32,699 nt of DNA from a virus: positions 1 through 32,699 of the IMG/VR virus record IMGVR_UViG_3300045988_140731. One strand, given 5' to 3'. Positions 947 to 32,699 of the stretch are shown here, one piece after another. Every line of letters begins with the position of its first letter. The stretch's first letter is position 1. The position numbers and the translations under genes were made by a program. Under the pieces are notes generated by a model, which did not search any database, was not told the DNA's origin, and saw only the letters and a program-made list of their open reading frames with translations.

Positions 947-1747
947 ATGATAGAGAAAGTAAACCCGATGCATCCCGATAAGATAGCTGATAGAATTGCA
1001 GGAGCGATTGTCGATCTTGCTTATACCAAAGCAGAAAATCCGAAAATTGCTGTCGAGGTTCTTATAGGGCATGGCGAGTGTACAATTATTGCTGAAAGTT
1101 CGGTTATAATTGAGTATGGCGAAGTTGTGGATATAGTCAGAAGAATAGCGGGAGCTGTTGGAGTAAGATTTAACCTAACTCCGCAAGACGAGAAACTTGC
1201 AGAAAATCAAAAAAGCGAGATAAGGTGTGGAGACAATGGGATATTCAAAGGTGTCCCTTTAACGGAAGAAGAAAAAACGATGTCGCAAATTGCGAAAGTA
1301 ATATACACGAGTTATCCATACGATGGCAAGTATATACTTGACAATAACAAGCTTATAATTTGTCAAAGTAACGCAAGTTCGGAGAGATTAGGCAATTTTA
1401 TAAGCGAATTGTGTCCGAAGTTTAAAGCGGTAATAAACCCGTTGGGAGACTGGACAGGCGGGACGAATGTTGACACGGGCGCAACAAACAGAAAACTCGG
1501 AAGCGACATGGCGCAAAGCGTAACGGGTGGCGGACTTCACGGCAAAGACCTTTCAAAGGCTGACGTATCGGTGAATATATATGCTTTTAGAAAGGCGCAG
1601 GAAACAGGAAAAACTGTTGAGTTGTGTTGTGCGATAGGAGACACGACAATAGACGGGAAACCGTATTCGGAAATTGTCGAAAAGGCAAGAGAATACATAA
1701 AGACCATTGGCGGGTTTGAAAAATTCGCAGAGTGGGGATTATATTAA
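947..1747 (+). CDS. metK: compact S-adenosylmethionine synthetase (MetK/MAT-like), 266 aa
   Basis: SD AAGGAG lies 6 nt upstream. NPMHPDKIADRIAGAIVD matches MetK GHPDKIADQISDAVLD. CGDNGIFKG matches GAGDQGLMFGY. INPLGDWTGG...DTGATNRKLGSD...GGGLHGKDLSKADVSVNIYA matches INPTGRFVIGGP...GLTGRKIIVDTYGG...[23 protein letters not shown]. Confidence 0.75.
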   Translation: MIEKVNPMHPDKIADRIAGAIVDLAYTKAENPKIAVEVLIGHGECTIIAESSVIIEYGEVVDIVRRIAGAVGVRFNLTPQDEKLAENQKSEIRCGDNGIFKGVPLTEEEKTMSQIAKVIYTSYPYDGKYILDNNKLIICQSNASSERLGNFISELCPKFKAVINPLGDWTGGTNVDTGATNRKLGSDMAQSVTGGGLHGKDLSKADVSVNIYAFRKAQETGKTVELCCAIGDTTIDGKPYSEIVEKAREYIKTIGGFEKFAEWGLY

Positions 1748-1769
1748 AGGAGAATGTGAAAATAAAATC

Positions 1770-2147
1770 ATGGCAACAGTACGAGGGAGACCTTTCGAGA
1801 AAGGGCGAAGCAGCGAAGAAGCAGCCGAAAGCGGAAGAAAGGGCGGAATAGCGTCAGGAGTTGCGAGAAGACAAGCGAAAGACTGGCGCAACTTAACTCT
1901 TGCCATATTAGAAATGCCGATTAAAGAGGGCGATATCGACGAAATAACTTCGCTTGCAAGCGTTAAAGGAAAGAATATAACAACAAGTCAAGCGATTATA
2001 TTGGCGCAGGTTCGACGGGCGATAGAAGGAGATACTCGATCTGCCGAGTTCATCTGTAAGGTATCGGGAAGCGATATAACAACAGAAGACAAGGAAACGG
2101 AACTTGCGGAGATGGCAAGATTACGAGATGAGGCGTTAAACAAATGA
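1770..2147 (+). CDS. terS: terminase small subunit (putative)
   Basis: Internal ATG of ORF 1707..2147, located after the metK stop. The N-terminus is basic (GRPFEKGRSSEEAAESGRKGG). It sits directly upstream of terL with an ATGA overlap. Confidence 0.6.
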   Translation: MATVRGRPFEKGRSSEEAAESGRKGGIASGVARRQAKDWRNLTLAILEMPIKEGDIDEITSLASVKGKNITTSQAIILAQVRRAIEGDTRSAEFICKVSGSDITTEDKETELAEMARLRDEALNK

Positions 2148-3466
2148 AACCTTATATGTTCACGGAAAAACAGCGCAAATGCATAAAAACGCCGCCAAAG
2201 ACCTGGAACATATGGTGCGGAGCGGTGCGAAGCGGTAAAAGTTATGCTACCATTATGGAGATGCCGTGGAAAATCGCAAAACACAAAGACGAGCCGTGCC
2301 TTATAGTAGCGAAAACGCTCGCAATGGTTGAAAAAAACGTTTTATCAATTGCACGGGCGCAATACGGGAACAAGATCGGTTTTATTCGAAGTACAGCGGA
2401 CGGCAGGCGAGTAGTAGACATATTCGGCAAAGAGATAGATTGTGTCGGAGCGAACGATGCGAGAAGCGCGGCGAAGATACACGGAACGGAGTACGGATAT
2501 GTATATGGCGACGAAGTAGTCTTGTGGGACGAAGCGTTTTTCACTATGTTGCAGTCAAGGTTAAGCCTTGCAGACAGTGAGTTTGACGGAACTTGTAACC
2601 CTGAAAGCCCGTCGCATTACTTGAAGCAGTTTATGGACAGCCCGACATTCGACGGAAACTGTTTCGAGTTTACGCTGTGGGATAACCCTTACTTGCCGAA
2701 GCATTACATAGAGCGGTTAGAGAACGAGTACAGGGGAACGATATATTACGACCGTTTCATTTTAGGAAAGTGGACGAGTTGTGAAGGGCAGGTCTTTCCG
2801 CTGTTCAGGAGAGACAAGCATTATATCACGCCTGACAGATACACCGAACTGTTCAATGAGAATATGGGCAAGATACGGTATTGTATTGTGGGCGGAGACG
2901 GGGCGACAACGAACGATAGTACGGCGTTAGTGCCTTTGATGATATTCTCGGACGGACACGCTTGCGTAGGTGATATATTTTATCATAACCCGAAAGAGAG
3001 CGGACAGTTATCGAACGCTGACCTTATTCCCTATATCCGACAATGGTATGATGACCTAATCAGGAAGTACGCATTGGATAGGGGCGGGGTTAGGTTTTAT
3101 ACGGCAGTGGACTGTGCGGCGGCGGACTTAGTGCTGACGATGCGGAAGAACTTGCCGACGAACTATAACATTACGGCGATGACGAAGAAGTCTATCACGC
3201 AGACGACGGATGTTGTGAACAACGCCTTTGCGAGGGACTTAGTACATATTCTTGATGTTGGTGGGACTTATAACTATGTGAGACGAAGATTTGAAAGCGG
3301 AGTGTCGCAGTTGGTTATAGACCTTGAACGGATGATATGGGCGAAAGGCAACGAAACTTACGATGCGAGCGTTCCGAACGACGTGGCTGACGCGTTCAGG
3401 TACGCCGTGAATACTTATTACAATAACCCGCTGAATATGTGGGACACGCCTGATTTCGGGCAATAG
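2144..3466 (+). CDS. terL: terminase large subunit
   Basis: 440 aa with a Walker A-like motif, CGAVRSGKSY. Walker B-like motif is YVYGDEV. It is followed by the portal gene. Confidence 0.85.
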   Translation: MKPYMFTEKQRKCIKTPPKTWNIWCGAVRSGKSYATIMEMPWKIAKHKDEPCLIVAKTLAMVEKNVLSIARAQYGNKIGFIRSTADGRRVVDIFGKEIDCVGANDARSAAKIHGTEYGYVYGDEVVLWDEAFFTMLQSRLSLADSEFDGTCNPESPSHYLKQFMDSPTFDGNCFEFTLWDNPYLPKHYIERLENEYRGTIYYDRFILGKWTSCEGQVFPLFRRDKHYITPDRYTELFNENMGKIRYCIVGGDGATTNDSTALVPLMIFSDGHACVGDIFYHNPKESGQLSNADLIPYIRQWYDDLIRKYALDRGGVRFYTAVDCAAADLVLTMRKNLPTNYNITAMTKKSITQTTDVVNNAFARDLVHILDVGGTYNYVRRRFESGVSQLVIDLERMIWAKGNETYDASVPNDVADAFRYAVNTYYNNPLNMWDTPDFGQ

Positions 3467-3477
3467 AAAGGTGAATT

Positions 3478-5124
3478 ATGGACTGTGATTTTAACTCATT
3501 AGAATTTGCACCGTGGCAGACTGGGGCGGCGTTCAACGCGTACCACACTTACAGTTTCGTCAACAACAGTGTATTCTATTCGATGATACCGTCGTATTAT
3601 CGGGAATATATGAAGCGTTATGTGCAGAATGCTTTGTGGTGGAACGATGGCTGGGTGCCGTATTTCCACAATCAGGACAAGGGCATTTTGTCGACGAGAC
3701 TGGCGGGAGCGATTGTTGATAGAGTTGCGAGAAAAGTTGCAGGCTCGCGCATTATGTACAAAAATGTGGGCGAACTCAAAGACGACAAGGGAAGCAATGT
3801 AACCCGTAACTTTATAGCCGACTGGGCAAAACGAGTAAGGTTTGAAAGCGCGTTGAAGCGTGGCATTAAGTACGCGGCGGCGGGCGGCACTGCATTGTTG
3901 AAGACAAACAAGAACGCTGACGGCGATTTGTGGGTGGAGAGTTTAAGGTTTGACAGATTTATACCCACGGTGGATGCTGCAACGGGGCTTGTGCGCGATG
4001 TGAAATGCTATTTGAACTTTGTCATTGACGAGAGCAAGAGCAAGGACGGCGAGAGAACGGGCGCGTATTGCCTTATAGAGCATAGGTATTTCGGGGAATA
4101 TACCACGGTGACGGGCGAAGTGATAAAGAACGCCGCATTGGTGGAGTACGAAGTAACAAGGGCTTACGGGAGCATTACGAACGGAGAATTCGTCGGAAAC
4201 TCTTATGAGCGCATAAAGTGGGTAAATTTGCCCGACAAGATAAGAAAAGCGTTCAAGGACAATTACGGCACGGTTAGGCTGGATGAGCCTATTTTAATGC
4301 CTTTTAAGGATTGGCTCGGTTGCGAACTTATGAACTGGACGGACGGTATAACGGGAATGCCTGGGATGCCGTTTGGTGAAAGTTTAATCTTAAAAGCAAT
4401 ACCGTTCTTGCAGGAATATGACTACCTTACAAGTGTCTATGGAACAGAGATGTATCTTGGGCGCGCAAGGGTTATATTATCGCAAGGACTTGACAGCGGA
4501 ACCAACAGAGCGGGGCTTGCTGGCGGCTGGGATAGCGCATTGAACGACCAGGCATTTGTGAGAACGCCGAGTGTAAATCCCGAAGATGATAAACCGTTGC
4601 CGATACAATTCGAGATACGCTCGGAAGCGTTGGCGAAGATGAGAAACAACCTGCTTGAAGCAATAGCGGTGAACATAGGGATATCCCCGTCAACATTGGC
4701 GCCGTTCTTACAGGATAGCAGTGCGAGAACCGCAAGGGAAGTATCCACGGAAGAAAACGAAACGGCTGCGTTTGTTGCGGACACAAGGTCTGTGCTGGAA
4801 ACGGCGATAAACGCAACATTGAAGCATATATGCGAATACTATCGTGCATTGCATCCTGAACTGGTGGATACGGTGGGGATAAGGTGGTCGCAGGCTGGAC
4901 TGTCTAACCCGTATATGACGACGGAAATGATGACACAGCAGTACAACGCAGGTCTTATCAGCCTTAAAGGAGCAATATCGGCATTGAACCCTGACGAAGA
5001 CGAAGCGCAGATTGACAAACTTGTCGAAGAAGCGAAAGCGGATGCAATGGGACACGCTGATTTTAACGATAAGGACTATTACGATGATAACGAGACAGTT
5101 GAACCCGCAGGCGATAACGCTTGA
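3478..5124 (+). CDS. portal protein
   Basis: 548 aa, immediately after terL and before the MuF-like and scaffold genes. It has an acidic C-terminus. Confidence 0.8.
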   Translation: MDCDFNSLEFAPWQTGAAFNAYHTYSFVNNSVFYSMIPSYYREYMKRYVQNALWWNDGWVPYFHNQDKGILSTRLAGAIVDRVARKVAGSRIMYKNVGELKDDKGSNVTRNFIADWAKRVRFESALKRGIKYAAAGGTALLKTNKNADGDLWVESLRFDRFIPTVDAATGLVRDVKCYLNFVIDESKSKDGERTGAYCLIEHRYFGEYTTVTGEVIKNAALVEYEVTRAYGSITNGEFVGNSYERIKWVNLPDKIRKAFKDNYGTVRLDEPILMPFKDWLGCELMNWTDGITGMPGMPFGESLILKAIPFLQEYDYLTSVYGTEMYLGRARVILSQGLDSGTNRAGLAGGWDSALNDQAFVRTPSVNPEDDKPLPIQFEIRSEALAKMRNNLLEAIAVNIGISPSTLAPFLQDSSARTAREVSTEENETAAFVADTRSVLETAINATLKHICEYYRALHPELVDTVGIRWSQAGLSNPYMTTEMMTQQYNAGLISLKGAISALNPDEDEAQIDKLVEEAKADAMGHADFNDKDYYDDNETVEPAGDNA

Positions 5125-6013: not shown

Positions 6014-6149
6014 GTCAATAACAGTAGCAAAGTTTGCGGTTTGGACGGAGAGAACGGCACAGCCGTTGCAGAACGGACTAAAAGACGGAACGGCGGGGAA
6101 CTGTTGGAGAATAGAATATTCTAAATACATTAAAAAGGAGCAAAACATT

Positions 6150-6650: not shown

Positions 6651-6678
6651 CACAACAAATTAAAAGGAGATTTTTATT

Positions 6679-7974
6679 ATGGCAGCACAACTTGGTAATT
6701 ACAAAGAGCCGTTTGTAAACGGCGCAACTCTTAAAAGACTGTATTCGGCAGTCGTTAAGGATAACATTTTTCAAGACCTCTTTACGAGAGATGGCGAAGC
6801 GGTAACGGAAAAATACTGCGAAGACACTTCTGTCGCGCAGGTAACCGTTCTGCGTATTCTTCCTGGCAACGGCGCGGCTCGTGCTATCGGCGCGGACACG
6901 AACGGCGGTTTCTTCAACGACAACCCTGCGTTCTTCAACCAGACCGAAGCGTACAATATCGACTTGCTCGACGTTGTTGACTTTATGATTGATATCCCCG
7001 AAGTACAGCAGGATATGATGTCCACCGACCTTGTCGCACAAAGGGCTAAAATCCTGGGCGGTCAGGTATCTCGCGCGGTCAACGCTATGACCATTGCGGC
7101 ACAACTTGCAAGGAACTTCAACGATATCGCAAGCGGCAAAGTTGAGAAGAACTGGATTGTTATGGACGCAACTCCTGCAACTGGCGCATATCTCAAATAC
7201 ATCGTCAAAGCGAGCGCAAACCTTGACAACGGCAACCCTGACGAAGGTATCGACACCTATCCTATCGAAGAAAGGGCTATCTTCCTGCGTGCTGACTATA
7301 AGGGCGAACTTATGGCGGCTGGTCAACTCCTTGTTGGCGGCTCGAATGCGGCGCAGTATATGCTTAAAGACGGCGGTTTGTCTCCCGAAGACAAATCGGA
7401 CAACGTGACTGGTTTCAGCGGTCGTATCCTCGATATGCCTGTCTATATGGCTGGCGAAGCGGTATGGAATATGGCGGCATCGTATCTCGGCATCGCTCCC
7501 GACAAAATCAAAGGCGTTAAAGGTATTGTTGTATCGGGTATCGGCACTGGTCGTGGTCTTGCGTTCAACGCATCGATTAAACAAATCGACAGCCCGAACG
7601 GCGCAGGTCAGAGAATGCAACCTTTGTATCGCTTCGGTGCGGAATGCTGGGATGCACTTTCGGTTGTACCTATCGTCGAAAACGGCTTCACTAACCCTGC
7701 AACGGCTGTCGCGCAACTTACGGTCGTCGCTCCTGGCTCTCGTCTGTACACTGTAACTTACGATAAGGGCGCAGGCACGGGTACGGCTCCCGAGGCAGTA
7801 TCGGGCAAGAAATACGGCGAAGCAATCGTTCTTGCGGCAGGCACGGGCTTGACCTTGTCGGGTAAGACTTTCAAAGGTTGGGATGAAAACAAAGACGCAA
7901 CCGCTCCGAAATACGCGGCGGGCGCACAATATGTTGTCAAGACCAACGCAACGCTTTACGCAATCTTTGCTTAA
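6679..7974 (+). CDS. major capsid protein with C-terminal Listeria-Bacteroides (Flg_new-type) repeat domain
   Basis: SD AAAAGGAG. 431 aa, directly after the scaffold gene. The last ~74 aa are YTVTYDKGAGTGTAP...GKTFKGWDENKDATAPKYAAGAQYVVKTNATLYAIFA. Confidence 0.75.
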   Translation: MAAQLGNYKEPFVNGATLKRLYSAVVKDNIFQDLFTRDGEAVTEKYCEDTSVAQVTVLRILPGNGAARAIGADTNGGFFNDNPAFFNQTEAYNIDLLDVVDFMIDIPEVQQDMMSTDLVAQRAKILGGQVSRAVNAMTIAAQLARNFNDIASGKVEKNWIVMDATPATGAYLKYIVKASANLDNGNPDEGIDTYPIEERAIFLRADYKGELMAAGQLLVGGSNAAQYMLKDGGLSPEDKSDNVTGFSGRILDMPVYMAGEAVWNMAASYLGIAPDKIKGVKGIVVSGIGTGRGLAFNASIKQIDSPNGAGQRMQPLYRFGAECWDALSVVPIVENGFTNPATAVAQLTVVAPGSRLYTVTYDKGAGTGTAPEAVSGKKYGEAIVLAAGTGLTLSGKTFKGWDENKDATAPKYAAGAQYVVKTNATLYAIFA

Positions 7975-7982
7975 AGACAATA

Positions 7983-8000: not shown

Positions 8001-8055
8001 TTATGTGCGAGTAAGAGTATAGCCGTGCAACTCGGCAAACTTGCAAGGAGACAAT

Positions 8056-22238: not shown

Positions 22239-22260
22239 CTATACGAAAAGGAGATTGCTT

Positions 22261-23463
22261 ATGGCAGAGAAAAGGTATTATTGGCTAAAACTTAAAGAGA
22301 ACTATTTTGATAGCCCAAAAATCAAAAAGTTGAGAAAAATTGCGGGTGGAGATACATACACGATTATCTATCTTAAACTGCAATTATTAAGCATTAAAAA
22401 CAATGGCATTATCGAATATGAAAAGATAGAGCCGACTTTTCAGGAAGAACTTGCTTTGAAACTTGACGAAGATGTCGAAAACATAAGTGTTACACTTTCT
22501 TACTTGCAATCGCAAGGGTTAGTAGATGTAAACGAAAACAATGATTTCTTCCTTATTGAAGCAAGTAATAACATAGGAAGCGAAAGCGAAAGTGCTGAAA
22601 GAGTTAGACTTTTTAGAGAACGTAAAAATCAAAAAGTGCTACAAGAACCAAAATCTAATGCTATAAGGCAAAGACAATTTCGTGCAAAAGAAATATGTAA
22701 ACAATCACAACATATCCCTATGATTGAAGATTATATCAACAACAAGAGATATAACGGGAACTATTATTTGGTTTTCAAGCGAGATGAAATGAAGTGTGCT
22801 ATTTGTGGAGAAACCGAAAACTTATGTGTTCATCATATAGACGGATATGACGAAAATAAACCACAAAATAGCAACGAGAACAAGATGATTACTTTATGCC
22901 GTGAATGTCATAGCAAAGTACATTCTCAAAGCATAGATATTCCGAAACTTAAACTTGAAAGCATTGGATATTTTGATGAGTGTAACGAAAGTAACGAAAT
23001 GTGTAACGATAGTGTAACGGAAGTGAAACAAATCTCTATATCTAATTCTAACTCTACTTCTAACTCTACCTCTAACTCTAATTCTACTTCTAATAACAAG
23101 GATAAGAAAGATAGCGAGATAGAACAAGAATTTGAAGAAGTCTGGAAAGTCTATCCACGCAAAGAAGATAAAAAGAAAGCATTTATGGCTTATAAGACTG
23201 CGAGAAAGAAAGCAAGTTTTGACGAAATCAAAAAAGGCGTTGAAACTTACAGCAATCATATTAAGGCAAGCAACACCGACAAACGCTACATAAAACTCGG
23301 AGCGACTTATTTCAACGGCGAGTGCTGGGCGAACAATTACGAGCAAAGCGAGCCGCAAGAAGAAACGGAAGAACAAAAGACACAGCGTGAACTTTTAGAA
23401 CTGCGCAAAGCAAGACCTGACCTTTCTAATTACAGCGACAAAGACTTATTGAGATATTTTTAA
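22261..23463 (+). CDS. replisome organiser (N-terminal domain) - HNH nuclease - Ser/Asn/Thr linker - C-terminal YPxK-type replication domain fusion
   Basis: ATG 22261 is 7 nt after GGAG. The N-terminus, KRYYWLKLKENYFDSPKIKKL...TYTIIYLKLQL, is typical of phage replisome organisers. HNH motif: CAICGETENLCVHHIDG...LCRECHSKVH. C-terminal motif: FEEVWKVYPRKEDKKKAFMAY. Confidence 0.7.
   Translation: MAEKRYYWLKLKENYFDSPKIKKLRKIAGGDTYTIIYLKLQLLSIKNNGIIEYEKIEPTFQEELALKLDEDVENISVTLSYLQSQGLVDVNENNDFFLIEASNNIGSESESAERVRLFRERKNQKVLQEPKSNAIRQRQFRAKEICKQSQHIPMIEDYINNKRYNGNYYLVFKRDEMKCAICGETENLCVHHIDGYDENKPQNSNENKMITLCRECHSKVHSQSIDIPKLKLESIGYFDECNESNEMCNDSVTEVKQISISNSNSTSNSTSNSNSTSNNKDKKDSEIEQEFEEVWKVYPRKEDKKKAFMAYKTARKKASFDEIKKGVETYSNHIKASNTDKRYIKLGATYFNGECWANNYEQSEPQEETEEQKTQRELLELRKARPDLSNYSDKDLLRYF
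22982..23019 (+). repeat. 4 x GTAACG direct repeats at 9-12 bp spacing (iteron candidates)
   Basis: GTAACG occurs at 22982, 22991, 23003 and 23014, inside the rep gene. Confidence 0.45.
23041..23094 (+). repeat. hexanucleotide microsatellite (TCTAAY/TCTACY) x 9
   Basis: tctaat tctaac tctact tctaac tctacc tctaac tctaat tctact tctaat encodes SNSNSTSNSTSNSNSTSN. Confidence 0.85.
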
Positions 23464-23475: not shown

Positions 23476-24273
23476 ATGAAAAGAGATACACAATTATACT
23501 TATTGGCATTAAAAAGATACGAACGCACGATGATGACCGACGGCGAGTACATTAAAGACGATGTGTTGTATTGTGCGAACTGCAACACGCCGAAAGCGAT
23601 GCCTGACCTTATCGACCAAAACGGCAATCTTGTGATGTGTGCGTGCGAGTGTCGGGACAGGCGAAACCGTGAAGACGAAGAAGAAGAGCGCAAGTGGAAA
23701 CTTTTACAGAAAATAGCACAACTTAAAGAAATATCGCTTATGGACGAACGATATTCCAAAGTGAGTTTTGAAACGAGCGCAAGGGGGACGGACGAGTACG
23801 AAAAAGCCGTAGCCGTGTGTAAGGACTATTGCACGAACGCAAGACAGAACTTTAAGGACGGCAAAGGTTTATTCATTTACGGCAATACGGGAATGGGCAA
23901 AACGCATATATCGGCGTGTATGGCAAACGACCTTTTGGAACAGGGTTATAAAATCAAATTCACGAACATAAACCGCATAATCGACCTTATCTACGAGAAT
24001 GCGACCGCCGAACTGACGGAAATAAAGCGATGCGACTTTTTATTTTTGGACGACTTCGGGAAAGATGTTGTTATGAAGAACAATCAGGACACTTGGTTGC
24101 AGTCGAAAATCTACAACATAATCAACGACCGTTACATAGGCGAAAGACCGATTATAATCACTTCTAACAGCACATTGCGAACGCTTATGCAGAAAGGATA
24201 TGATATTGTTACAATCGACCGCATAAGGGAAATGTGCGAGCAAATTGAGGTCAAGGGGGAGAATTGGCGTTAA
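23476..24273 (+). CDS. DnaC/IstB-like AAA+ helicase loader with N-terminal Cys-rich segment
   Basis: SD AAGGAG. Walker A motif GNTGMGKTH and Walker B motif FLFLDDFG. N-terminal CANCN...CACEC. Confidence 0.8.
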   Translation: MKRDTQLYLLALKRYERTMMTDGEYIKDDVLYCANCNTPKAMPDLIDQNGNLVMCACECRDRRNREDEEEERKWKLLQKIAQLKEISLMDERYSKVSFETSARGTDEYEKAVAVCKDYCTNARQNFKDGKGLFIYGNTGMGKTHISACMANDLLEQGYKIKFTNINRIIDLIYENATAELTEIKRCDFLFLDDFGKDVVMKNNQDTWLQSKIYNIINDRYIGERPIIITSNSTLRTLMQKGYDIVTIDRIREMCEQIEVKGENWR

Positions 24274-24294
24274 ACCGATTTATAAGGAGTGAAT

Positions 24295-25164
24295 ATGGCA
24301 CTTATAGAATATAGGCTTGACGGAACGGTCAACAAAGTAGAAAACGCAATAAAACGCATACAATTAGCGAACTTATCCGAAGAACCGTTGTATGTATGTT
24401 ATAGCGGTGGCAAAGACAGTAAGGTCATTCGACACCTGATGGGTATGAGCGGAGTACCGCACGAACTGCATTATAACTTAACTACGGTAGATATTCCGTC
24501 AGTGGTACGCGAAATTATGGACGACAAGGAAGTTATCATCGAAAAGGCAAGATACTCTGACGGAACTCAAAAAACTATGTGGAACTTGATTGTCAAAAAA
24601 CATATGCCACCGACAAGAATATGCCGCTATTGTTGCTCCGAACTCAAAGAAGCGAGCGGGAAAGGACGGATATGTGTTACGGGCGTAAGAGCCGCCGAAA
24701 GCGTTTCTCGTGCGAAAAAAGCGGGGGAAGCAAAGATATTTGGCGGAAATGGCGTGGAAGTCATACACAATATGGACAATGACGAAAACCGCCGAATGAT
24801 TGAACAATGTTACCGAACTCAAAAAACGATTATCAATCCGATAATTGATTGGACGGACGACGATATTTGGGAGTTTTCAAAAGCCGAAAATATCAGACAA
24901 AATCCTTTGTATTTACAATGTGGCGGCACAAGGAAAAGACTTGGTTGTATTTTATGCCCTATGGCAAGAATAGAAGATAAACTTAACGACTTAAAGGACT
25001 ATCCTAAAATTGCCGAATGTTATATTAAAGCGTTCGACAAAATGCTTGAAAATATGCCAAACGATAAAAAAGTGTCGTGGAAGAACGGCACGGAAGTTAT
25101 GGACTGGTGGTTGTACGGAAACAAGGAAACCGACGAAAACCAAATCAGTTTTGACGACTTATAA
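24295..25164 (+). CDS. PAPS reductase / DndC-like PP-loop family protein
   Basis: ATG 24295 is 5 nt after AAGGAG. PP-loop motif YSGGKDS. Also CRYCCSELKE, TGVRAAES and a C-terminal LGCILCP cysteine pair. Confidence 0.75.
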   Translation: MALIEYRLDGTVNKVENAIKRIQLANLSEEPLYVCYSGGKDSKVIRHLMGMSGVPHELHYNLTTVDIPSVVREIMDDKEVIIEKARYSDGTQKTMWNLIVKKHMPPTRICRYCCSELKEASGKGRICVTGVRAAESVSRAKKAGEAKIFGGNGVEVIHNMDNDENRRMIEQCYRTQKTIINPIIDWTDDDIWEFSKAENIRQNPLYLQCGGTRKRLGCILCPMARIEDKLNDLKDYPKIAECYIKAFDKMLENMPNDKKVSWKNGTEVMDWWLYGNKETDENQISFDDL

Positions 25165-25291
25165 GCAATGCACCGTCGGGGCGGCGACGGCGTAAATAAA
25201 CAACAACATAATAAAATAACACCCTTGTCGAGAAACCGCCCTTTCTCGGCTGACAAAAAAGGACTTTACAAAACAAACAAAAGGTGATATA

Positions 25292-25483
25292 ATGAGTAAA
25301 TCAAAGGCGAACGAATTATTGCAGGAACTACATACCAACCTTTCGGCGAACTGGACGGGGAAAGCACGCTTCTCGTCGTCGGAAGCAATAAAGATGTGTC
25401 GGGAAATTGTCTATGAATACGATAACGATGATAGTAATCGGGATAACACTGATGATAGTGTTTCCGCTGTTGGCGAACAATGA
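25292..25483 (+). CDS. hypothetical protein, acidic C-terminus
   Basis: 63 aa with SD AAAGGTGA. Confidence 0.5.
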   Translation: MSKSKANELLQELHTNLSANWTGKARFSSSEAIKMCREIVYEYDNDDSNRDNTDDSVSAVGEQ

Positions 25484-25746
25484 TTGATTTTGACGAAAAG
25501 TGGAAAGAATACCGTAATCGGGCGATACAGGCGTTAGGAACGGCGATTGTAATCACCTTGATAGTTGTGGCGAACATAGGTCTTATAGCGTGCATAGGGC
25601 GTTTATCGGCGCAACAAACGAAGTATCTTTTGTATGCTCAATGCGGACTTGTTGATATACTCGGGTGCGTTGGAATGATACATTGTTATCACTACTTTGA
25701 CAAATGGAAGGAGAAAAAGAAAAATGGGAATGATAAGAACAAATGA
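25480..25746 (+). CDS. small 2-TM membrane protein
   Basis: ATGA overlap with the upstream gene. TM segments: TAIVITLIVVANIGLIACIG and GLVDILGCVGMIHCY. Confidence 0.5.
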   Translation: MIDFDEKWKEYRNRAIQALGTAIVITLIVVANIGLIACIGRLSAQQTKYLLYAQCGLVDILGCVGMIHCYHYFDKWKEKKKNGNDKNK

Positions 25747-25906
25747 CGGCAGGGTGATTGTGGCAATTCCGTCGGTATGGAAAATCGGAGATAGTAAGTG
25801 GGCGGTTTATTTTATGGAAGATAACCAACTTTATACCGCTATATACTACACGGAAGAAAAGGCTCGGCACAGATACGAAAAGGAACTTGAAAAATGCACT
25901 CGATAA
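25724..25906 (+). CDS. hypothetical protein (60 aa)
   Basis: Internal ATG following GGAAGGAG. The gene ends inside the terminator hairpin. Confidence 0.45.
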   Translation: MGMIRTNDGRVIVAIPSVWKIGDSKWAVYFMEDNQLYTAIYYTEEKARHRYEKELEKCTR

Positions 25907-25921
25907 CGGGTGTGTTTTTTT
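25897..25921 (+). terminator. intrinsic terminator
   Basis: CACTCG-ATAA-CGGGTG stem-loop (6 bp, one G-U) followed by TG and then T7. Confidence 0.6.
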
Positions 25922-25968
25922 GTGCGAAAAATTTTTGAAAAAACTTTGAAAAAAATATTGAAAAACTA

Positions 25969-25997
25969 TTGACAATAGGACGGGGCGGGTGTATAAT
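25969..25997 (+). promoter_or_regulatory. SigA-type promoter TTGACA-17-TATAAT preceded by three phased TTGAAAAA tracts
   Basis: TTGACA at 25969..25974 and TATAAT at 25992..25997. TTGAAAAA repeats begin near 25935, 25946 and 25958. Confidence 0.75.
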
Positions 25998-26041
25998 GTA
26001 ATTGTAAAGATTAAGAAAGGCGCAAGCCGAAGGAGTTAAAA

Positions 26042-26290
26042 ATGACAAAACAAGAAGCAACAGAAATCAAGAAGGCAATTAAAGGTTTCACCGTTTACTT
26101 CCAAAGCAAAACAGGGAAATTGAGAGTTAGAGCCTACACATACACAAGCAATTATGACAAAGAAACCGAACAGAAAAGAATAGTTGAGTTGCTGAACAGA
26201 GTTTCGGAAAGCGGGTATAGACCGAAATACGAAATCGAACATAGAACATATCAAGGTTTCATTCACGATACAGACATTGTTTTTCAATAA
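26042..26290 (+). CDS. hypothetical early protein (82 aa)
   Basis: SD GAAGGAG. It is the first gene after the promoter cassette. Confidence 0.6.
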   Translation: MTKQEATEIKKAIKGFTVYFQSKTGKLRVRAYTYTSNYDKETEQKRIVELLNRVSESGYRPKYEIEHRTYQGFIHDTDIVFQ

Positions 26291-26337
26291 AGTAAAAGCC
26301 GAGCGGGGACGGCTAAATCCCCGCAAAGGAGAAAGAT

Positions 26338-26505
26338 ATGAACGCGAGAGAATTGGCGGAAAAACACGGTGTGAGTCATACATTGATTTACAATATGGCG
26401 AAGAAACTCGGCAGATTGCCGACTGATGAAGAAATCGAAAACCGCAACCGCAAGACGGGAAGACCGCAGAAGTACAGGAGTATCGAAGATGAAGACGGAA
26501 AATAG
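26338..26505 (+). CDS. small helix-turn-helix DNA-binding protein (55 aa)
   Basis: SD AAAGGAG. ELAEKHGVSHTLIYNMAKKLG resembles an HTH. It is below the 60-aa cutoff of the ORF track. Confidence 0.5.
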   Translation: MNARELAEKHGVSHTLIYNMAKKLGRLPTDEEIENRNRKTGRPQKYRSIEDEDGK

Positions 26506-26656
26506 TTGCTATCAATGCCCGAACAGAAAGGAAGCGTGTCACGATAATTGCGAAGTCTATAAGGCGTGGAAAGCCGAGTATCAGCGCAAGGAAAAGGAAG
26601 AAACGAAGACACGCAAAGCGTATTACAATTACGTCTATTATAGGAGCAAGGACTAA
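26489..26656 (+). CDS. small Cys-rich protein (55 aa)
   Basis: Internal ATG 8 nt after AGGAG. Cys-rich motif: CYQCPNRKEACHDNCEVY. Confidence 0.45.
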   Translation: MKTENSCYQCPNRKEACHDNCEVYKAWKAEYQRKEKEETKTRKAYYNYVYYRSKD

Positions 26657-27115: not shown

Positions 27116-27287
27116 CGAACTTCCAACCGCTGCCGACCTTATTGAACTTATCGAGACCTTGAATGCGGTTAAGGCGGAGAAGATAGCAAGGCTTGAACGG
27201 TACATTGAGTATCGTGAAGAACGAAACAAACACGACCGCGACGATATTGAGCGGATGAAAGAATACTTAAAGGAGTGCAAAAAATGA
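27072..27287 (+). CDS. hypothetical coiled-coil protein (~71 aa; start uncertain)
   Basis: This is the 3' portion of ORF 26904..27287. It is ATGA-coupled to the Sak-like gene. Confidence 0.4.
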   Translation: MADMYPTTTDLKITDELPTAADLIELIETLNAVKAEKIARLERYIEYREERNKHDRDDIERMKEYLKECKK

Positions 27288-28090: not shown

Positions 28091-28093
28091 GAT

Positions 28094-28612
28094 ATGATAG
28101 AATTCACAAGCAAAAAACCAAAGTTATCAATAAGCCTTGACGGGGCGGTAGAAGTAACGTTCACCGCTCCACGGGCGAAACTTGAAGCCTTAACCAACCT
28201 TTCGGACAAAGACTTTGACATCACAGTCAAACAGCACCGAGAGAAACGAAGCCTTGATGCGAACGCGTATGCGTGGGTTTTAATCACTGCGATTGCGGAC
28301 GAACTACGAGCAAGCAAAGACGAGATTTACTTTGATATGTTGAAGAAGTACGGGCAGGGCGAACTCATAAGCGTTAAAACGGGTATCGACATCAACGGGT
28401 TTGTCAAGTACTCCGAAATCGCAGGATATGGAAAGGTCAACGGTGTCGAGTTTACGCATTATAGGGTTTACAAAGGCAGTAGCGAGTACGACACAAGAGA
28501 AATGGCAATTTTCATCGATGGTATCGTATCAGAAGCGCAGGCGTTGGGCATTGACACGAGAACGCCTGACGAATTGGCGGAAATGAAATCACTATGGGAG
28601 AACGGGAAATGA
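28094..28612 (+). CDS. NinB/Orf-like recombination mediator (putative)
   Basis: KRSLDANAYAWV matches lambda NinB RSLDQNRKLWA. GSSEYDTREMAIFIDGIVSEAQALGID matches STSRMRVGEFAELLELIQAFGTERGV. Confidence 0.5.
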   Translation: MIEFTSKKPKLSISLDGAVEVTFTAPRAKLEALTNLSDKDFDITVKQHREKRSLDANAYAWVLITAIADELRASKDEIYFDMLKKYGQGELISVKTGIDINGFVKYSEIAGYGKVNGVEFTHYRVYKGSSEYDTREMAIFIDGIVSEAQALGIDTRTPDELAEMKSLWENGK

Positions 28613-29211
28613 ACAATAAGCAACGATACGCGATATTGCAAAAGAACAAGAAAGAATGGCTTAAATACTACGACCTTAAAGACGAGAGCGGAATATATAT
28701 CCTTACGAGATACGACGACAACGGCTTTAAGTTTGCGTATGTAGGGCAGGCAAAAAAGGTGCTTACACGGCTCGCGGAACACCCTATGGGGTATAAACAA
28801 CACATAGATTTTTCTTTGCGTAAACACGGCATCGGCGCACCGTTCGCAAAGGATGACAAATGGAAATGCGAGAAAGTCTTTTATTGTCCCGAAACCGAAC
28901 TCAACGATTTGGAGCAAGAATGGATAAGGAAGTGCCACGAACTCGGCTATCAATTACTTAACAAAACGACGGGAAGTCAAGGTCAAGGCAAGCAAGCATT
29001 GGGCGAGCAAAAGCCCGCAAAAGGCTATTACGACGGAATTAAGCAAGGTCGCAAGAAAGTAATCGACGAAATCAATAACAGGCTTACAAAGGGCGATATT
29101 CGGCTTATAATCGAGTGTCCGAACAAGCGCAAGGAACAACACCTTGCAAAACTTATGGAAATATTGGGAGAAAACGACAATGAAGATACGGAATACAGCG
29201 GAGATTGTTAA
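28609..29211 (+). CDS. GIY-YIG nuclease
   Basis: ATGA overlap with the upstream gene. SGIYILTR...FAYVGQAKKVLTRLAEH. Confidence 0.65.
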   Translation: MNNKQRYAILQKNKKEWLKYYDLKDESGIYILTRYDDNGFKFAYVGQAKKVLTRLAEHPMGYKQHIDFSLRKHGIGAPFAKDDKWKCEKVFYCPETELNDLEQEWIRKCHELGYQLLNKTTGSQGQGKQALGEQKPAKGYYDGIKQGRKKVIDEINNRLTKGDIRLIIECPNKRKEQHLAKLMEILGENDNEDTEYSGDC

Positions 29212-29479
29212 GGAAATTTTGGAACAGAAGCCGAGAGCAAGGGACTGCGATTTTGTCCTTTATGGTTTTGTCCTTAATAAATATGGGTACTCGGTCAATA
29301 TCCCGTTCAACGAGTTGGCGAATTTAGTCAAGGCGGAAGAATTACCGAGTATGGAAACCGTGGGACGCGCGAGAAGAAAGGTTATGGAACTCTACCCGTC
29401 GTTGCGGGGCGATAGTTACAAGGTCAGGTTAGACAACACAGCGGAGTACATAGAATTCGCACAAGACAGGAGTATATGA
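29180..29479 (+). CDS. hypothetical protein (99 aa)
   Basis: Internal ATG following GGGAG. I recognise no motif. Confidence 0.45.
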   Translation: MKIRNTAEIVKEILEQKPRARDCDFVLYGFVLNKYGYSVNIPFNELANLVKAEELPSMETVGRARRKVMELYPSLRGDSYKVRLDNTAEYIEFAQDRSI

Positions 29480-29766
29480 AATCAATCATTCAAGGCGATA
29501 GCGAAGATAGGTGTTACATTTGCGGTAGAACGGAGTGGATAGAGCGACATCACATCTTCAACGGAACGGCAAACAGGAAGAAGTCGGAAAAGTACGGACT
29601 AACCGTTCACTTGTGCCACTGGTGTCATAACGAGCCGCCGAACGGGGTACATTACAATCAGGCAGCGGACACACGCTTGAAGCAAATCGGGCAACAAACG
29701 GCGATGCGTGAGTACGGTTGGACGGTTGACGAGTTTCGGGAAGTGTTCGGGAAAAATTATTTATAA
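29476..29766 (+). CDS. HNH-type zinc-binding nuclease (NinG/Rap-like layout)
   Basis: CYICG...ERHHIFNG..NRK...LCHWCHN...GVH. SD AGGAG and an ATGA overlap with the upstream gene. Confidence 0.5.
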   Translation: MKSIIQGDSEDRCYICGRTEWIERHHIFNGTANRKKSEKYGLTVHLCHWCHNEPPNGVHYNQAADTRLKQIGQQTAMREYGWTVDEFREVFGKNYL

Positions 29767-29782
29767 AATTGTTGAAAAACTA

Positions 29783-29811
29783 TTGACAAACACGGGACGG
29801 GGGTGTATAAT
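29783..29811 (+). promoter_or_regulatory. SigA-type promoter TTGACA-17-TATAAT (second copy of the promoter cassette)
   Basis: TTGAAAAACTATTGACAA is identical to the 25958..25975 copy. GGACGGGG..GGTGTATAAT is also shared. Confidence 0.75.
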
Positions 29812-29855
29812 AAGAGTAGAAATAAAGGAAAGGGCAATGCCCGAAGGAGTGTAAA

Positions 29856-30014
29856 ATGTATTATGTAATCAAACGCAATGGCGATGAAATGGTGGGACAA
29901 GTGAAGTTTAAGACTTTTTCGGATGCAATGGATTTTTTTGCCACGAATAATTATGACGAAGTTGTAACAAGGGACGCGAACGGTTATATTTGCGACACTT
30001 TGGTTAGCAGATAA
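29856..30014 (+). CDS. hypothetical early protein (52 aa; MYYVIKRNGDEMVGQVKFKTF...)
   Basis: Its translation initiation region, GAAGGAGTGTAAAATG, is nearly identical to that of the next gene. It is below the ORF-track cutoff. Confidence 0.55.
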   Translation: MYYVIKRNGDEMVGQVKFKTFSDAMDFFATNNYDEVVTRDANGYICDTLVSR

Positions 30015-30025
30015 AGGAGTGTAAA

Positions 30026-30355
30026 ATGACTAAACAAGAGCAAATAGAAGAAATAGCGAAAATCGTTGACGAAATGTACAATGTATACACAACGACAGCG
30101 GAAGATATTGCAGAGGGATTATATAACGCGGGTTATCGAAAGATTGACGATTTGAAAGCCGAAAATAAGCAACTTAAAACCGAGTGCGCCTTGTTGGACG
30201 ATGAATTACGCATTGCAAGACAGAACATAATCGACGTGCTGAATGAGTTGAAAACAAAAGCGTTCGACAAAGACGCTTTTAACGGGTGGGCAGGCTCGAC
30301 TTTTGTGGTTCTTGTTAGAGATATAGACAAGATGATTGAGGAGTATGTAAAATGA
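30026..30355 (+). CDS. hypothetical coiled-coil protein
   Basis: 109 aa with translation initiation region AAAGGAGTGTAAAATG. Confidence 0.6.
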   Translation: MTKQEQIEEIAKIVDEMYNVYTTTAEDIAEGLYNAGYRKIDDLKAENKQLKTECALLDDELRIARQNIIDVLNELKTKAFDKDAFNGWAGSTFVVLVRDIDKMIEEYVK

Positions 30356-30564
30356 AACAAATCAGAGCGTTAAGAGCGAACGGCATCGTAATGTTGGTAT
30401 CCTCGGTGATAACAGCGGTATGTGTCGGGGTGTGTTGGAAGCACTTTCCGATTGCGGTGCAGGCGATATACATCTGCATATCGTTGATGTTTGCGGTGTT
30501 CGGCGGAGTAATGGTTGGACGGAGTATTTGGTTGACAAAACAGGAAAAGGAGAATAGAAAATGA
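30352..30564 (+). CDS. small 2-TM membrane protein
   Basis: ATGA overlap with the upstream gene. TM segments: IVMLVSSVITAVCVGVCW and AIYICISLMFAVFGGVMVG. Confidence 0.6.
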   Translation: MKQIRALRANGIVMLVSSVITAVCVGVCWKHFPIAVQAIYICISLMFAVFGGVMVGRSIWLTKQEKENRK

Positions 30565-30890
30565 CAGCATCAGAAATTTGTATAGTTGTGTTTCTTGGAA
30601 TAGGAACATTGTTGATTGCAATTCCTGCAATATATATGGGAGTTGATTATTTCCAAGAAAGGCAAAAGAGAAAAAGATCGCTTTTTACACGTATTCTGTA
30701 CGAAATGGAAAAGTTGCACAAACAGAAACACGAAGTCAATTTCATACTTTTAAGCGACGACGTTCGATATGTTGATTTTGACCGAGTAATGGGCATCCCC
30801 GTTGAACGCGCAACATTGCCGAAAGGTGTTCAATTTGTTGTGGCAGAAAGAAAAGCAAAGGAGAACGAAAAATGGATGCAGGACAAATAA
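30561..30890 (+). CDS. N-terminally anchored membrane protein
   Basis: ATGA overlap with the upstream gene. TM segment: ICIVVFLGIGTLLIAIPAIYMGV. Confidence 0.6.
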   Translation: MTASEICIVVFLGIGTLLIAIPAIYMGVDYFQERQKRKRSLFTRILYEMEKLHKQKHEVNFILLSDDVRYVDFDRVMGIPVERATLPKGVQFVVAERKAKENEKWMQDK

Positions 30891-31249
30891 TGATAATGTG
30901 CTTGCTTGCGGTGGCATTGATTTTATGTGCTATTATAATGGGCAGGGAGATAGACAATATCAAATCCATAGGAGAATTACCTGTCAGCGACACGGAGAGA
31001 GAGCGAGAAAAACACAAAAAGGAAATTGCGAAAGAACTGGCAAAATTACGTCGAAAACCTGACCTTATTTTGTGCGAATGTTGGTATTTATGGGCTAACA
31101 TTGACGGCAAAGTAATATCAGAAATCTGCGGTGTTCCTGTGCTATATGCAGGATTATATGGAAAGACTCATATGTTTGTTTGGTTTGACGACTTTGACAA
31201 AGATGCAAATGAACAATGCGAAAAAATATTAAAGGAGCAGAAGAAATGA
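30872..31249 (+). CDS. N-terminally anchored membrane protein
   Basis: SD AAAGGAG. TM segment: IMIMCLLAVALILCAIIMG. Confidence 0.6.
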   Translation: MDAGQIMIMCLLAVALILCAIIMGREIDNIKSIGELPVSDTEREREKHKKEIAKELAKLRRKPDLILCECWYLWANIDGKVISEICGVPVLYAGLYGKTHMFVWFDDFDKDANEQCEKILKEQKK

Positions 31250-31689
31250 AGAAACTTTTAATCGTATCAACAATCATAGCAATAATGTGCGTGTGCCTTG
31301 TCGGGTGCGTAGAAGACGAAAAGCCCGCACAAGCAGTTTTTACGGCAACGGCTGGAACTTGTCAAGAACTTGGCGAAGTCAAAGCAAGCGATTACAACGA
31401 CGGTTATCATACAAATGACTACTTCATTGCTGTCTTGCTGACAACGGAAAATGTCGAAGCGATATCCTTGTTGAACGAAGAGACGAACACTTATAACTTT
31501 ATGCTTTTAATGTCCGATGGCGACGAACTTATGGAAGCGATTAAGCCGATAGACACGCTTTTCGGGACAAAAGATAACGAGTATGCACTTGTGTTTCACT
31601 CGAATTACACACTTGAAGAGTACGATTTTGCGTTGAGTATCAATGTCGGCGGGAAGCACGAAGTTGTTAAGTTAGGTGCGGAAAAATGA
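31246..31689 (+). CDS. lipoprotein (147 aa)
   Basis: ATG follows AAGGAG and forms an ATGA overlap with the upstream gene. Signal peptide MKKLLIVSTIIAIMCVCLVGC contains the lipobox LVGC. Confidence 0.7.
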   Translation: MKKLLIVSTIIAIMCVCLVGCVEDEKPAQAVFTATAGTCQELGEVKASDYNDGYHTNDYFIAVLLTTENVEAISLLNEETNTYNFMLLMSDGDELMEAIKPIDTLFGTKDNEYALVFHSNYTLEEYDFALSINVGGKHEVVKLGAEK

Positions 31690-31961
31690 AAAAATCGTTC
31701 AAATCACTCATTATAGCACTTATTATAGTAATGTGTATAGTGGTATTAACGGGGTGCGTAACACGGTCGCGGATGATTGACAAGACGACGAATTCATTAA
31801 CGATACGGATGACGGACGGCAATATCGCCACATATCGGGGGCAAATCAAGAACATTGAAGAAACGAAGAACCTTATCATTCTTACCGTTGATTACGGGAA
31901 CGGCATTGTATCTACCGTTGTGTTCAACAAAGAAAATATAACTTATGTCGAATATGCTTGA
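31686..31961 (+). CDS. lipoprotein (91 aa)
   Basis: ATGA overlap with the upstream gene. Signal peptide MKKSFKSLIIALIIVMCIVVLTGC contains the lipobox LTGC. Confidence 0.7.
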   Translation: MKKSFKSLIIALIIVMCIVVLTGCVTRSRMIDKTTNSLTIRMTDGNIATYRGQIKNIEETKNLIILTVDYGNGIVSTVVFNKENITYVEYA

Positions 31962-31986
31962 CAAGCGGTCAAAGTTATGGTACAAT
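31958..31986 (+). promoter_or_regulatory. SigA-type promoter TTGACA-17-TACAAT with extended -10 (TGgTACAAT)
   Basis: TTGACA at 31958..31963 overlaps the stop codon of the preceding gene. TACAAT is at 31981..31986. Confidence 0.65.
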
Positions 31987-32014
31987 GGTTGTATAACGAA
32001 TAGGAGAACAGCCT

Positions 32015-32070
32015 ATGATTTTATCGGTGAAACTTCATAGGAGTGCGAAGTAGACAGGGAAGCCTGTCTA
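32015..32070 (+). promoter_or_regulatory. leader with a 12-codon uORF (MILSVKLHRSAK) whose stop codon lies in an 8-bp hairpin
   Basis: SD TAGGAG is 8 nt before ATG 32015. TAGACAGG-GAAG-CCTGTCTA spans 32051..32070 and is followed by TTTG. Confidence 0.35.
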
Positions 32071-32088
32071 TTTGCCGTTGTAAACGAA

Positions 32089-32418
32089 ATGAGATTTACG
32101 GACGAAAACAATAACATATCGGTCAAGGACATACGCATTAAGGGCGACAAGGCATCGGGACAGCCGATAACGAAACTTGCGATGTACGAGAACATAGCCG
32201 ACACGCCTGCGGAGTTTGCGAAGATAATCAGGTCGGCGCAGGAGATGTTGGACGGTATCGCATTCACGCCGAAGCAGGCGGAAACGGTCAAAAGCGTTGT
32301 TCAGAGCAGGGCGGCAGAAGCCGTACAAAAGGCTGTGGACGCTATTTTAAGGGAACTTGACGAACAGGGCTATTCGGAAGCGAAAGAAGCGATACAACGA
32401 TTTGTGGGGGCGGAGTAA
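32089..32418 (+). CDS. hypothetical protein (109 aa), no obvious SD
   Basis: A long ORF in the sense orientation. It is in the same frame as the next gene and separated from it by a single TAA. Confidence 0.5.
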   Translation: MRFTDENNNISVKDIRIKGDKASGQPITKLAMYENIADTPAEFAKIIRSAQEMLDGIAFTPKQAETVKSVVQSRAAEAVQKAVDAILRELDEQGYSEAKEAIQRFVGAE

Positions 32419-32699
32419 TTGGAAATCATAAAACTTAACATTAACGAAGTAATACCGTATTCGAATAACCCGAGAAAAAACGACAACGCTGTTGATGCAG
32501 TTGCGGAAAGCATAAAACAATGCGGATATTGTTCACCGATTGTTATCGACGAAGACAATGTTATTCTTGCGGGACACACAAGGCTTAAAGCACTTAAAAA
32601 GTTAAAATGGAAAGAAGTCGAGTGCGTAAGGAAAACGGGGTTGACCGAAGAACAAAAGAAAAAATACCGTATTCTTGACAACAAGACAAACGAACTTGC
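32419..32699 (+). CDS. ParB-like N-terminal (nuclease/CTPase-fold) domain, 5' part of the ParB-MTase gene that continues at 1..932
   Basis: TTG start. EIIKLNINEVIPYSNNPRKNDNAVDAVAESIKQCGYCSPIVIDEDNVILAGHTRLKALKKL is a typical ParB-N domain. The start codon is uncertain. Confidence 0.75.
   Translation, partial: MEIIKLNINEVIPYSNNPRKNDNAVDAVAESIKQCGYCSPIVIDEDNVILAGHTRLKALKKLKWKEVECVRKTGLTEEQKKKYRILDNKTNEL
32645..32699. repeat. second copy of the 55-bp terminal repeat
   Basis: Identical to 1..55. Confidence 0.9.

Follow-up and report, generated by a model that had tools for sequence, protein, structure and literature searches.

A gene for S-adenosylmethionine (SAM) synthetase (methionine adenosyltransferase, MAT; MetK) next to genes for DNA methylases has been described before. 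In Phi1207.3, a SAM synthetase, a DNA methylase with a ParB domain and a C5 methylase are encoded ahead of the terminase, and the role that the authors proposed for the synthetase is to furnish the neighbouring phage methylases with their methyl donor (Iannelli et al., 2014; PMC4260502). Here we analyze a module of the same logic in the virus record IMGVR_UViG_3300045988_140731 of IMG/VR, positions 1 to 32,699 (the whole stretch of 32,699 nucleotides (nt) is referred to as the window). Its central element is a compact MetK-like protein of 266 amino acids (aa), encoded directly after a ParB-domain DNA methyltransferase. The module of Phi1207.3 and Javan244, which lies upstream of the terminase, has the same methylase partner (ParB-like/N6_N4) as that of the window, but its MetK is longer (345-353 aa) and it includes a C5 methyltransferase, which is not adjacent to the window module. 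The Phi1207.3 MetK (orf29) has all three Pfam domains, unlike the 266-aa protein. The Javan244 MetK (locus L245, 3986-5023) is 29% identical to the latter and precedes an adenine and a C5 methyltransferase. Since a long and a short MetK occupy the same slot, two MetK forms appear to have been recruited to one module.

Short forms of the protein have also been encountered. The MetKs of phages and prophages such as Gardnerella vB_Gva_AB1 (ORF19), the Javan prophages and the members of PHROG 1569 are 64-71% identical to the 266-aa protein over the full length. They share with the window the neighbourhood of methyltransferase(s) and terminase, the gene order of the window being the rarer one. For prophage 12/111phiA of group B Streptococcus (S. 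agalactiae), a MetK with a '135-amino-acid truncation' was reported, and its deletion mutants were studied (Renard et al., 2021; PMC8223999). Judging by this description rather than by the sequence, we infer that the 12/111phiA MetK belongs to the compact family. In a broader survey, Kieft et al. found viral metK to be frequent in human-gut viromes, to keep the substrate-binding motifs, to be under purifying selection and to co-occur with dcm in Streptococcus suis phages. They read the gene in terms of sulfur and methionine metabolism; the compact form was not separated and the link to ParB methyltransferases was not quantified.

Both the concept of SAM supply (2014, PMC4260502) and the truncated form (2021, PMC8223999) are already published, and the module is no new category. 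What is added here is a residue-level case for an intact active site, a fold model and a quantified, asymmetric synteny. In our literature search we met with neither a biochemical nor a structural characterisation of a MAT that is minimal or encoded by a phage, and with no anti-defence role for a SAM synthetase; such work may exist elsewhere. A phage strategy of the opposite kind is well known. The SAM lyase of phage T3 (gp0.3) destroys SAM, inhibits MetK and evades restriction and BREX. The lyase and the compact MAT both target the SAM pool, but their folds are unrelated, there is no homology, and they act in opposite directions (destruction versus synthesis). The reading that we favour, with a probability of about 0.6, is that the 266-aa protein is a competent, minimised MAT that provides an accessory SAM supply for phage self-methylation from within the packaging operon.

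The methyltransferase-MetK module

The module spans the ends of the window and consists of the following elements.

947..1747, + strand: compact MetK-like MAT, 266 aa (Pfam, PHROG, PDB profile, AlphaFold/Foldseek and ligand map)
32419..32644, + strand: 5' part of the methyltransferase gene, with the ParB-like N-terminal domain (stitched open reading frame (ORF), running on at window position 1)
1..932, + strand: 3' part of the methyltransferase gene, with an acidic linker and the beta-class N6/N4 domain (Pfam, PHROG, motifs)
32645..32699, no strand: terminal duplicate, a copy of 1..55 that represents the overlap of a circular assembly and adds no sequence

Positions 1-55 and 32645-32699 form an exact 55-nt terminal direct repeat, as is typical of circular contigs produced by k-mer assemblers. 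As the window ends duplicate these 55 nt, the true circular genome has 32,644 bp. The methyltransferase gene comprises 32419..32644 + 1..932 (1158 nt, 385 aa, TTG start), and its reading frame is unbroken only once one 55-nt copy is dropped. In an earlier note, made from the letters of the sequence, the module had been placed at 32419..32699 + 1..1747. The wrapping of the gene around the window ends is confirmed, whereas the last 55 nt have to be removed as the duplicate. The same genome is found, rotated, in ENA (ERZ1689984, NODE_329_length_32699). The ENA locus is found without any difference in the circularised 32,644-bp sequence, and in the ENA record the methyltransferase gene is uninterrupted, with a 385-aa product identical to the stitched translation.

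The assignment of the partner gene as a ParB-domain DNA methyltransferase, also put forward in the earlier note, holds for the methyltransferase domain and probably also for the ParB-like N-terminus. The Pfam N6_N4_Mtase domain is matched with 96.1 bits (cut-off 26.7), and the match to phrog_498 (DNA methyltransferase) has E = 4e-156. At the N-terminus, Pfam ParB_N reaches 23.3 bits, slightly below the cut-off of 26.3, and the ParB-like phrog_620 is matched with E = 3.7e-49. The precomputed Pfam annotation of the ENA gene includes both ParB_N and N6_N4_Mtase, ParB_N being unmarked, which denotes E <= 1e-5. In the translation, motif IV (TDPPY) precedes motif I (LFGGSGTT), the order of beta-class enzymes. 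The best NCBIfam matches are adenine-specific methyltransferases, every one below its cut-off; since the nearest curated models are of this type, the target is probably N6-adenine.

The MetK-like ORF starts with ATG, and the gap to the methyltransferase stop (932) is 14 nt long (933..946), as had been noticed before. It contains GGAG 6 nt before the ATG.

Family assignment of the 266-aa protein

The five MetK hallmark motifs named in the earlier note are all present: HPDKIADRI (residues 9-17), GDNG (95-98), INPLG (163-167), DTGATNRKLGSD (176-187) and GGGLHGKDLSKAD (194-206). Searches against domain and structure collections corroborate the MetK-like identity. Pfam S-AdoMet_synt_N (PF00438) is matched over residues 3-73 with 43.2 bits (cut-off 33.1, E = 6e-11). 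When the single sequence is compared with PDB, only MATs are retrieved at significant E-values. A profile of 24 family sequences retrieves MATs only, with E-values from 2e-22 to 1e-15 over profile positions 2-236 of 282. In PHROGs, residues 1-265 are matched by phrog_1569 (E = 3.3e-70), a group labelled 'unknown function'.

The protein shares the MAT fold family and the mapped ligands with canonical MetK (E. coli; PDB 1FUG and 7LL3; PF00438 + PF02772 + PF02773; TIGR01034). It differs from it in that it is 118 aa shorter (266 versus 384 aa, close to the ~120 aa estimated earlier), 27% identical, superposes with a template-modelling score (TM-score) of ~0.6 and has only the N-domain above the Pfam cut-off. 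The central region is ~45 residues shorter than in E. coli MetK. According to the alignment, the trimmed parts correspond to E. coli residues ~78-90, 129-137 and 156-161, to part of the 165-188 hairpin and to several loops of the C-domain. Its C-terminus coincides with the YGLI-equivalent of residue 341 in E. coli, and the final 42 residues of MetK have no counterpart. We also considered a pseudogene fragment of a host metK and rejected it, because thousands of sequences share this length and these ends.

Structure model and active site

A first AlphaFold model, built from 101 sequences (72-87% identical), reached a predicted local distance difference test score (pLDDT) of 71.9 and left residues 171-205 unresolved. 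It was superseded by a second model based on a more diverse alignment (150 rows, 49-87% identity), for which pLDDT is 86.8 and the predicted TM-score (pTM) is 0.87. Among the Foldseek matches of the second model in PDB, the top 50 are all MATs, with a probability of 1.00. Read by eye rather than computed, the order of helices and strands corresponds to that of the three MAT domains. No match was found among the viral structures of BFVD at E <= 1e-3. The compact family has no structure of its own in BFVD or in PDB, where only distant canonical MATs are available.

To locate the active site, we used a motif-anchored map from E. coli MetK to the 266-aa protein. The corresponding pairs are H14>H9, D16>D11, K17>K12, E42>E37, E55>E50, Q98>Q80, D118>D96, D163>D126, K165>K128, F230>W169, D238>D176, R244>R182, K245>K183, K265>K200, K269>K204 and D271>D206. 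All 16 ligand or catalytic residues are kept, 15 of them identical and one (F230 to W169) conservatively replaced. In the E. coli structures these residues bind triphosphate, Mg2+/K+, methionine or adenine. In a set of 24 representatives with 41-63% identity to the 266-aa protein, most of these positions vary little or not at all. The isoleucine of 'AIG' (I230), which would line the pocket of the methionine side chain, is likewise conserved in the family alignment. All eight substrate-binding motifs of MetK listed by Kieft et al. (citing Komoto 2004) are present.

One segment required a choice of register. The correspondence of D163-A164-K165 to D126-G127-K128 follows from the DxK motif, the family invariance and the predicted helix-strand-strand order. 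A register obtained with MAFFT, in which the family DGK stands opposite the 'DDGK' hairpin turn of E. coli, was rejected; in the HMMER alignment the true K165 segment remained unaligned, within an insertion. Taken together, map and model indicate that the 266-aa protein has a MAT fold with a complete catalytic set, and it would accordingly be expected to be active.

Distribution of the compact family

The compact family is large. At least 8000 relatives of ~260-290 aa are present in a set of 5.8 billion proteins, and 215 clusters at 50% identity are matched with E <= 1e-30. The family is found in at least 567 IMG/VR contigs and in at least 306 species genomes or metagenome-assembled genomes, mainly of Clostridia and Bacilli, but also of Gardnerella, Prevotella and others. 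Deposited phages with a compact MetK include the Javan streptococcal prophages, Gardnerella vB_Gva_AB1 (where it is annotated as S-adenosylmethionine synthetase) and Terrisporobacter TPDSL_ph1.

A separate observation concerns a relative of 582 aa (P0121), in which a ~316-aa insertion is situated exactly within the catalytic GGGL^(H)GKD loop of the short MetK. The insertion boundaries are intein-like (CLSGDSE... ...TGN|C), and Pfam detected no Hint or endonuclease domain in the insertion. If it is indeed an intein, it would mark the catalytic loop as functionally essential.

Association with SAM-consuming enzymes

Gene neighbourhoods were compared in three samples: 80 loci of IMG/VR that carry a short MetK, 80 genome loci for which the flanks were shorter, and the 80 closest ParB-methyltransferase loci. 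A homologue of the ParB/N6_N4 methyltransferase is present in the flank of 72 of the 80 IMG/VR loci. In 66 of them it lies within 150 nt and on the same strand, either upstream, as in the window (15 loci), or downstream (51 loci). The commoner order is small terminase subunit (TerS), MetK, ParB-methyltransferase and, variably, C5 methyltransferase, while the window has the order methyltransferase, MetK, TerS-like protein and large terminase subunit (TerL). A C5 methyltransferase is also present in 35/80 IMG/VR loci. Among the genome loci, the methyltransferase was found in 50/80 and is adjacent in 39/80. The same pairing of MetK and methyltransferase occurs in Gardnerella phage vB_Gva_AB1, Terrisporobacter phage TPDSL_ph1 and Streptococcus phage Javan105.

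In loci without the ParB-methyltransferase, SAM consumers of other kinds are among the neighbours. The scanned neighbour ORFs include those for radical-SAM enzymes (6), C5 methylases (3), an N6_N4 methylase (1) and a Dam-type methylase (1). Radical-SAM enzymes are frequent neighbours of a short MetK here and were seen in the viral loci L010 and L029 and in the genome contigs L085, L087, L097, L152 and L157, the match in L010 being just below the Pfam cut-off. Two types can be distinguished: a protein of ~266-332 aa encoded upstream, and a protein of ~455-480 aa with a Cys-rich C-terminus encoded downstream. Some of the loci without the ParB-methyltransferase, including some with radical-SAM neighbours, have the appearance of chromosomal rather than prophage loci; HrcA and a peptidase are examples of neighbours in such settings. 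Overall, the synteny supports a functional coupling of the short MetK with the methyltransferase, as far as gene order can indicate it.

Avoidance of palindromic sites

Palindromes were counted on the circularised 32,644-bp genome. Seven of the 16 four-base palindromes are nearly absent (CCGG 0, GGCC 0, CTAG 1, CATG 3, AGCT 4, GATC 8 and ACGT 23, with expected counts of 26-121), while TCGA, GTAC, TGCA, GCGC and TTAA are near their expected counts. Moreover, 37 six-base palindromes with an expectation of at least 5 are found 0-1 times. The non-palindromic GAGG and CCAG are also rare on the + strand. Such avoidance suggests strong restriction pressure and hints that the target of the methyltransferase may be among the non-depleted sites.

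Genome context of the module

The genes around the module, all on the + strand, are the following.

31958..31986, + strand: promoter-like site, TTGACA-17-TACAAT with a TG extension (consensus scan alone, 11/12 matches)
32089..32418, + strand: 109-aa ORF (from the ORF list; also gene-called on the ENA record)
1770..2147, + strand: 125-aa ORF, TerS-like, directly preceding TerL (phrog_2412, unknown function, E = 5.9e-20)
2144..3466, + strand: TerL (Pfam Terminase_6N, 55.4 bits, cut-off 22; phrog_2, E = 2.3e-33)
3478..5124, + strand: portal protein, SPP1 Gp6-like (Pfam SPP1_portal, 27.2 bits, cut-off 25.5)

The location of the module just upstream of the packaging genes, as claimed earlier, is evident from the TerS-like, TerL and portal genes that follow it. 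The 125-aa ORF, which overlaps the TerL start by 4 nt, gave no match in Pfam and NCBIfam and, by its position alone, is probably the small terminase subunit. On the other side, the TAA stop of the 109-aa ORF abuts the TTG start of the methyltransferase gene; searches of PHROG, Pfam and NCBIfam with this ORF returned no match. The promoter-like site is located within the 127-nt gap preceding the module and is a possible start of the transcription unit. Scanning of the + strand from this site to TerL revealed no convincing terminator, the only candidate being a weak 5-bp stem inside the methyltransferase gene. Given the promoter-like site ahead and no convincing terminator before TerL, the module appears to head the packaging operon.

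At gathering thresholds, an Rfam scan of the whole window detected no family and hence no SAM riboswitch near the module, and a tRNA scan found zero tRNAs. The larger of the remaining ORFs included no recognisable integrase or repressor. A megablast search of deposited phages, with a 25-kb part of the window as query, found no close nucleotide relative; the sole match covers 260 nt of the methyltransferase gene at 75% identity.

Several features outside the module deserve mention. The genome is one-directional except for three consecutive minus-strand ORFs (109, 130 and 168 aa) at 25266-26542, the sole plausible leftward genes, for which no family matches were obtained. A PAPS-reductase/DndC-like gene (Pfam PAPS_reduct, phrog_424) is encoded on the + strand at 24289-25164. 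Upstream of it are genes for a replisome-organiser protein with a weak, sub-threshold HNH match (22255-23463) and a DnaC/IstB-like loader (23476-24273). The PAPS-reductase/DndC-like gene is a second gene of a type usually classed as sulfur auxiliary metabolic; alternatively, its product may act on DNA or nucleotides. In the structural region, a 431-aa protein (6679-7974, + strand) has a C-terminal Listeria-Bacteroides repeat (Flg_new) domain and gave no match in the PHROG search.

Proposed role and alternatives

Starting from the observed fold family and conserved ligands, we propose that the product of ORF 947..1747 is a catalytically competent, minimised MAT that would convert ATP and L-methionine into SAM, pyrophosphate and phosphate. 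It would retain three trimmed MAT domains with a complete active site, having lost the C-terminal ~42 residues, surface loops and some of the central hairpin region. The gene order suggests a common transcript for it and the ParB_N + N6/N4 methyltransferase, with probable translational coupling, at the start of the packaging operon. If so, both proteins would be expressed as packaging starts, and the MAT would raise or secure the SAM supply. The methyltransferase, presumed to be active, could then modify its target in newly replicated phage DNA before encapsidation, and a benefit for the phage would come from the protection of progeny genomes against restriction in the next host. The interpretation of the earlier note is thus supported to the extent that sequence analysis allows, but its further idea that the compact MAT counters SAM-depleting defences finds no support here.

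A number of observations weigh against this proposal. At the family level, the central domain (PF02772) has no match in the 266-aa protein even at E <= 1, and the C-domain (PF02773) is sub-threshold, with 14.3 bits (cut-off 25) over profile positions 2-48 of 138. The cut-off of the MetK equivalog model TIGR01034 (NCBIfam) is missed by a wide range (46.2 versus 309.4 bits), so that by this criterion the protein is not an equivalog of the housekeeping MetK. This is also why its GenBank relatives are mostly annotated as 'hypothetical protein'. At the structural level, the TM-scores to solved MATs are only 0.58-0.68, with root mean square deviations of 7-9 A; such values fit heavy trimming of the MAT fold. 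The sole uncertain part of the second AlphaFold model, a stretch of low confidence, is the catalytic glycine-rich loop 194-199. In MATs, residues of different subunits form the active site, at the dimer interface, and the 266-aa protein was modelled as a monomer only. Within the family, several divergent members (P0167, P0185, P0206 and P0132, representatives at 50% identity) have lost parts of HPDK, GDNG, R-K or GGG. They retain the length and the C-terminal GGFEK..EWGL motif and may be non-catalytic offshoots. The synteny is asymmetric as well: a short MetK occurs within 3 kb in only 6 of the 80 closest ParB-methyltransferase loci. As most phages with the ParB-methyltransferase lack MetK, its benefit would be conditional. 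The same asymmetry also speaks for the proposal: with the short MetK nearly always beside SAM consumers, and these consumers usually without it, the protein behaves as an optional helper of SAM-dependent enzymes. Finally, the genetics of the streptococcal prophage MetK led to host phenotypes (aggregation, biofilm) and not to DNA methylation (PMC8223999).

The last point brings up the alternative that survives best, though we consider it unlikely: the protein may be an active SAM synthetase with a general role in auxiliary metabolism or lysogenic conversion, affecting host methionine, sulfur, polyamine or autoinducer-2 (AI-2) metabolism or physiology, with no specific link to DNA methylation. 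Viral metK has been treated as an organosulfur auxiliary metabolic gene that is subject to purifying selection and abundant in viromes of the human gut (Kieft et al.), and deletion and complementation of the truncated prophage metK of group B Streptococcus altered aggregation, chain length and glycocalyx (PMC8223999). The copies in apparently chromosomal settings, next to HrcA or a peptidase, fit this explanation too. It does not, however, account for the same-strand adjacency to a methyltransferase in 66/80 viral loci and in two gene orders, nor for the radical-SAM enzymes or other methyltransferases in many of the other loci. In addition, the gene is inside the packaging operon and not in a moron position, no integrase was detected among the ORFs scanned, and a non-orthologous, longer MetK fills the identical slot beside methyltransferases.

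Another possibility is that the protein is a non-catalytic mimic of MetK, which binds SAM or co-assembles with the host MetK and, by lowering or sequestering SAM, disarms type I/III restriction-modification and BREX in a manner similar to the T3 SAM lyase. We regard this as improbable. With MAT active sites spanning subunits, a trimmed subunit could indeed poison the host enzyme. The T3 lyase is known to bind MetK (PDB entry 8bb1 is among the Foldseek matches). The loss of HPDK, RK or GDNG residues in the four divergent relatives points in the same direction. Yet the 266-aa protein retains 16/16 ligand residues, in columns more conserved than any others of the family, and a decoy would not need such residues. 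Less SAM would, moreover, starve the methyltransferase encoded 14 nt upstream, as well as the C5 and radical-SAM partners elsewhere. The least probable alternative is altered chemistry on a MAT fold, with a SAM analogue as product or a different nucleotide or amino acid as substrate; what the methyltransferase adds to the DNA would then be something other than a methyl group. The F230>W169 replacement near the adenine site and the trimming would permit a changed specificity, and phages have diverse pathways of DNA hypermodification. Against this, the methionine and adenosine ligands (E50, Q80, D126, D176 and K204, likewise I230) are conserved, the partner belongs to the ordinary DPPY methyltransferases of the beta class, and no other modification genes adjoin.

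Beyond the preferred reading of an accessory SAM supply, a more far-reaching version can be formulated, which is speculative and in our view doubtful. In it, the compact MAT would bind the ParB-domain methyltransferase (and, via ParB, DNA or the packaging machinery) and channel SAM to it, thereby freeing methylation from the host SAM pool and from the regulation of host MetK. The trimming would have removed the tetramerisation and regulatory elements of the cellular enzyme, leaving the smallest functional MAT known, and the pairing with radical-SAM enzymes would reflect a portable SAM-supply cassette of mobile elements.

Implications

If the 266-aa protein is active, a MAT can work with ~30% less polypeptide, which would be relevant to enzymologists and to users of MATs for making SAM analogues. 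The compact family is very common in (pro)phages of the gut, the rumen and streptococci. Its members are labelled as 'unknown function' in PHROGs and mostly as 'hypothetical protein' in GenBank, so that a firm assignment would improve many annotations. As a putative SAM-making module, the locus offers a testable counterpart to the SAM-destroying strategy of T3. Hundreds of phages from the gut and from streptococci have the pairing with a DNA methyltransferase. That the compact MetK is nearly always accompanied by such an enzyme or by a radical-SAM enzyme suggests that phage self-methylation can be limited by the availability of SAM.

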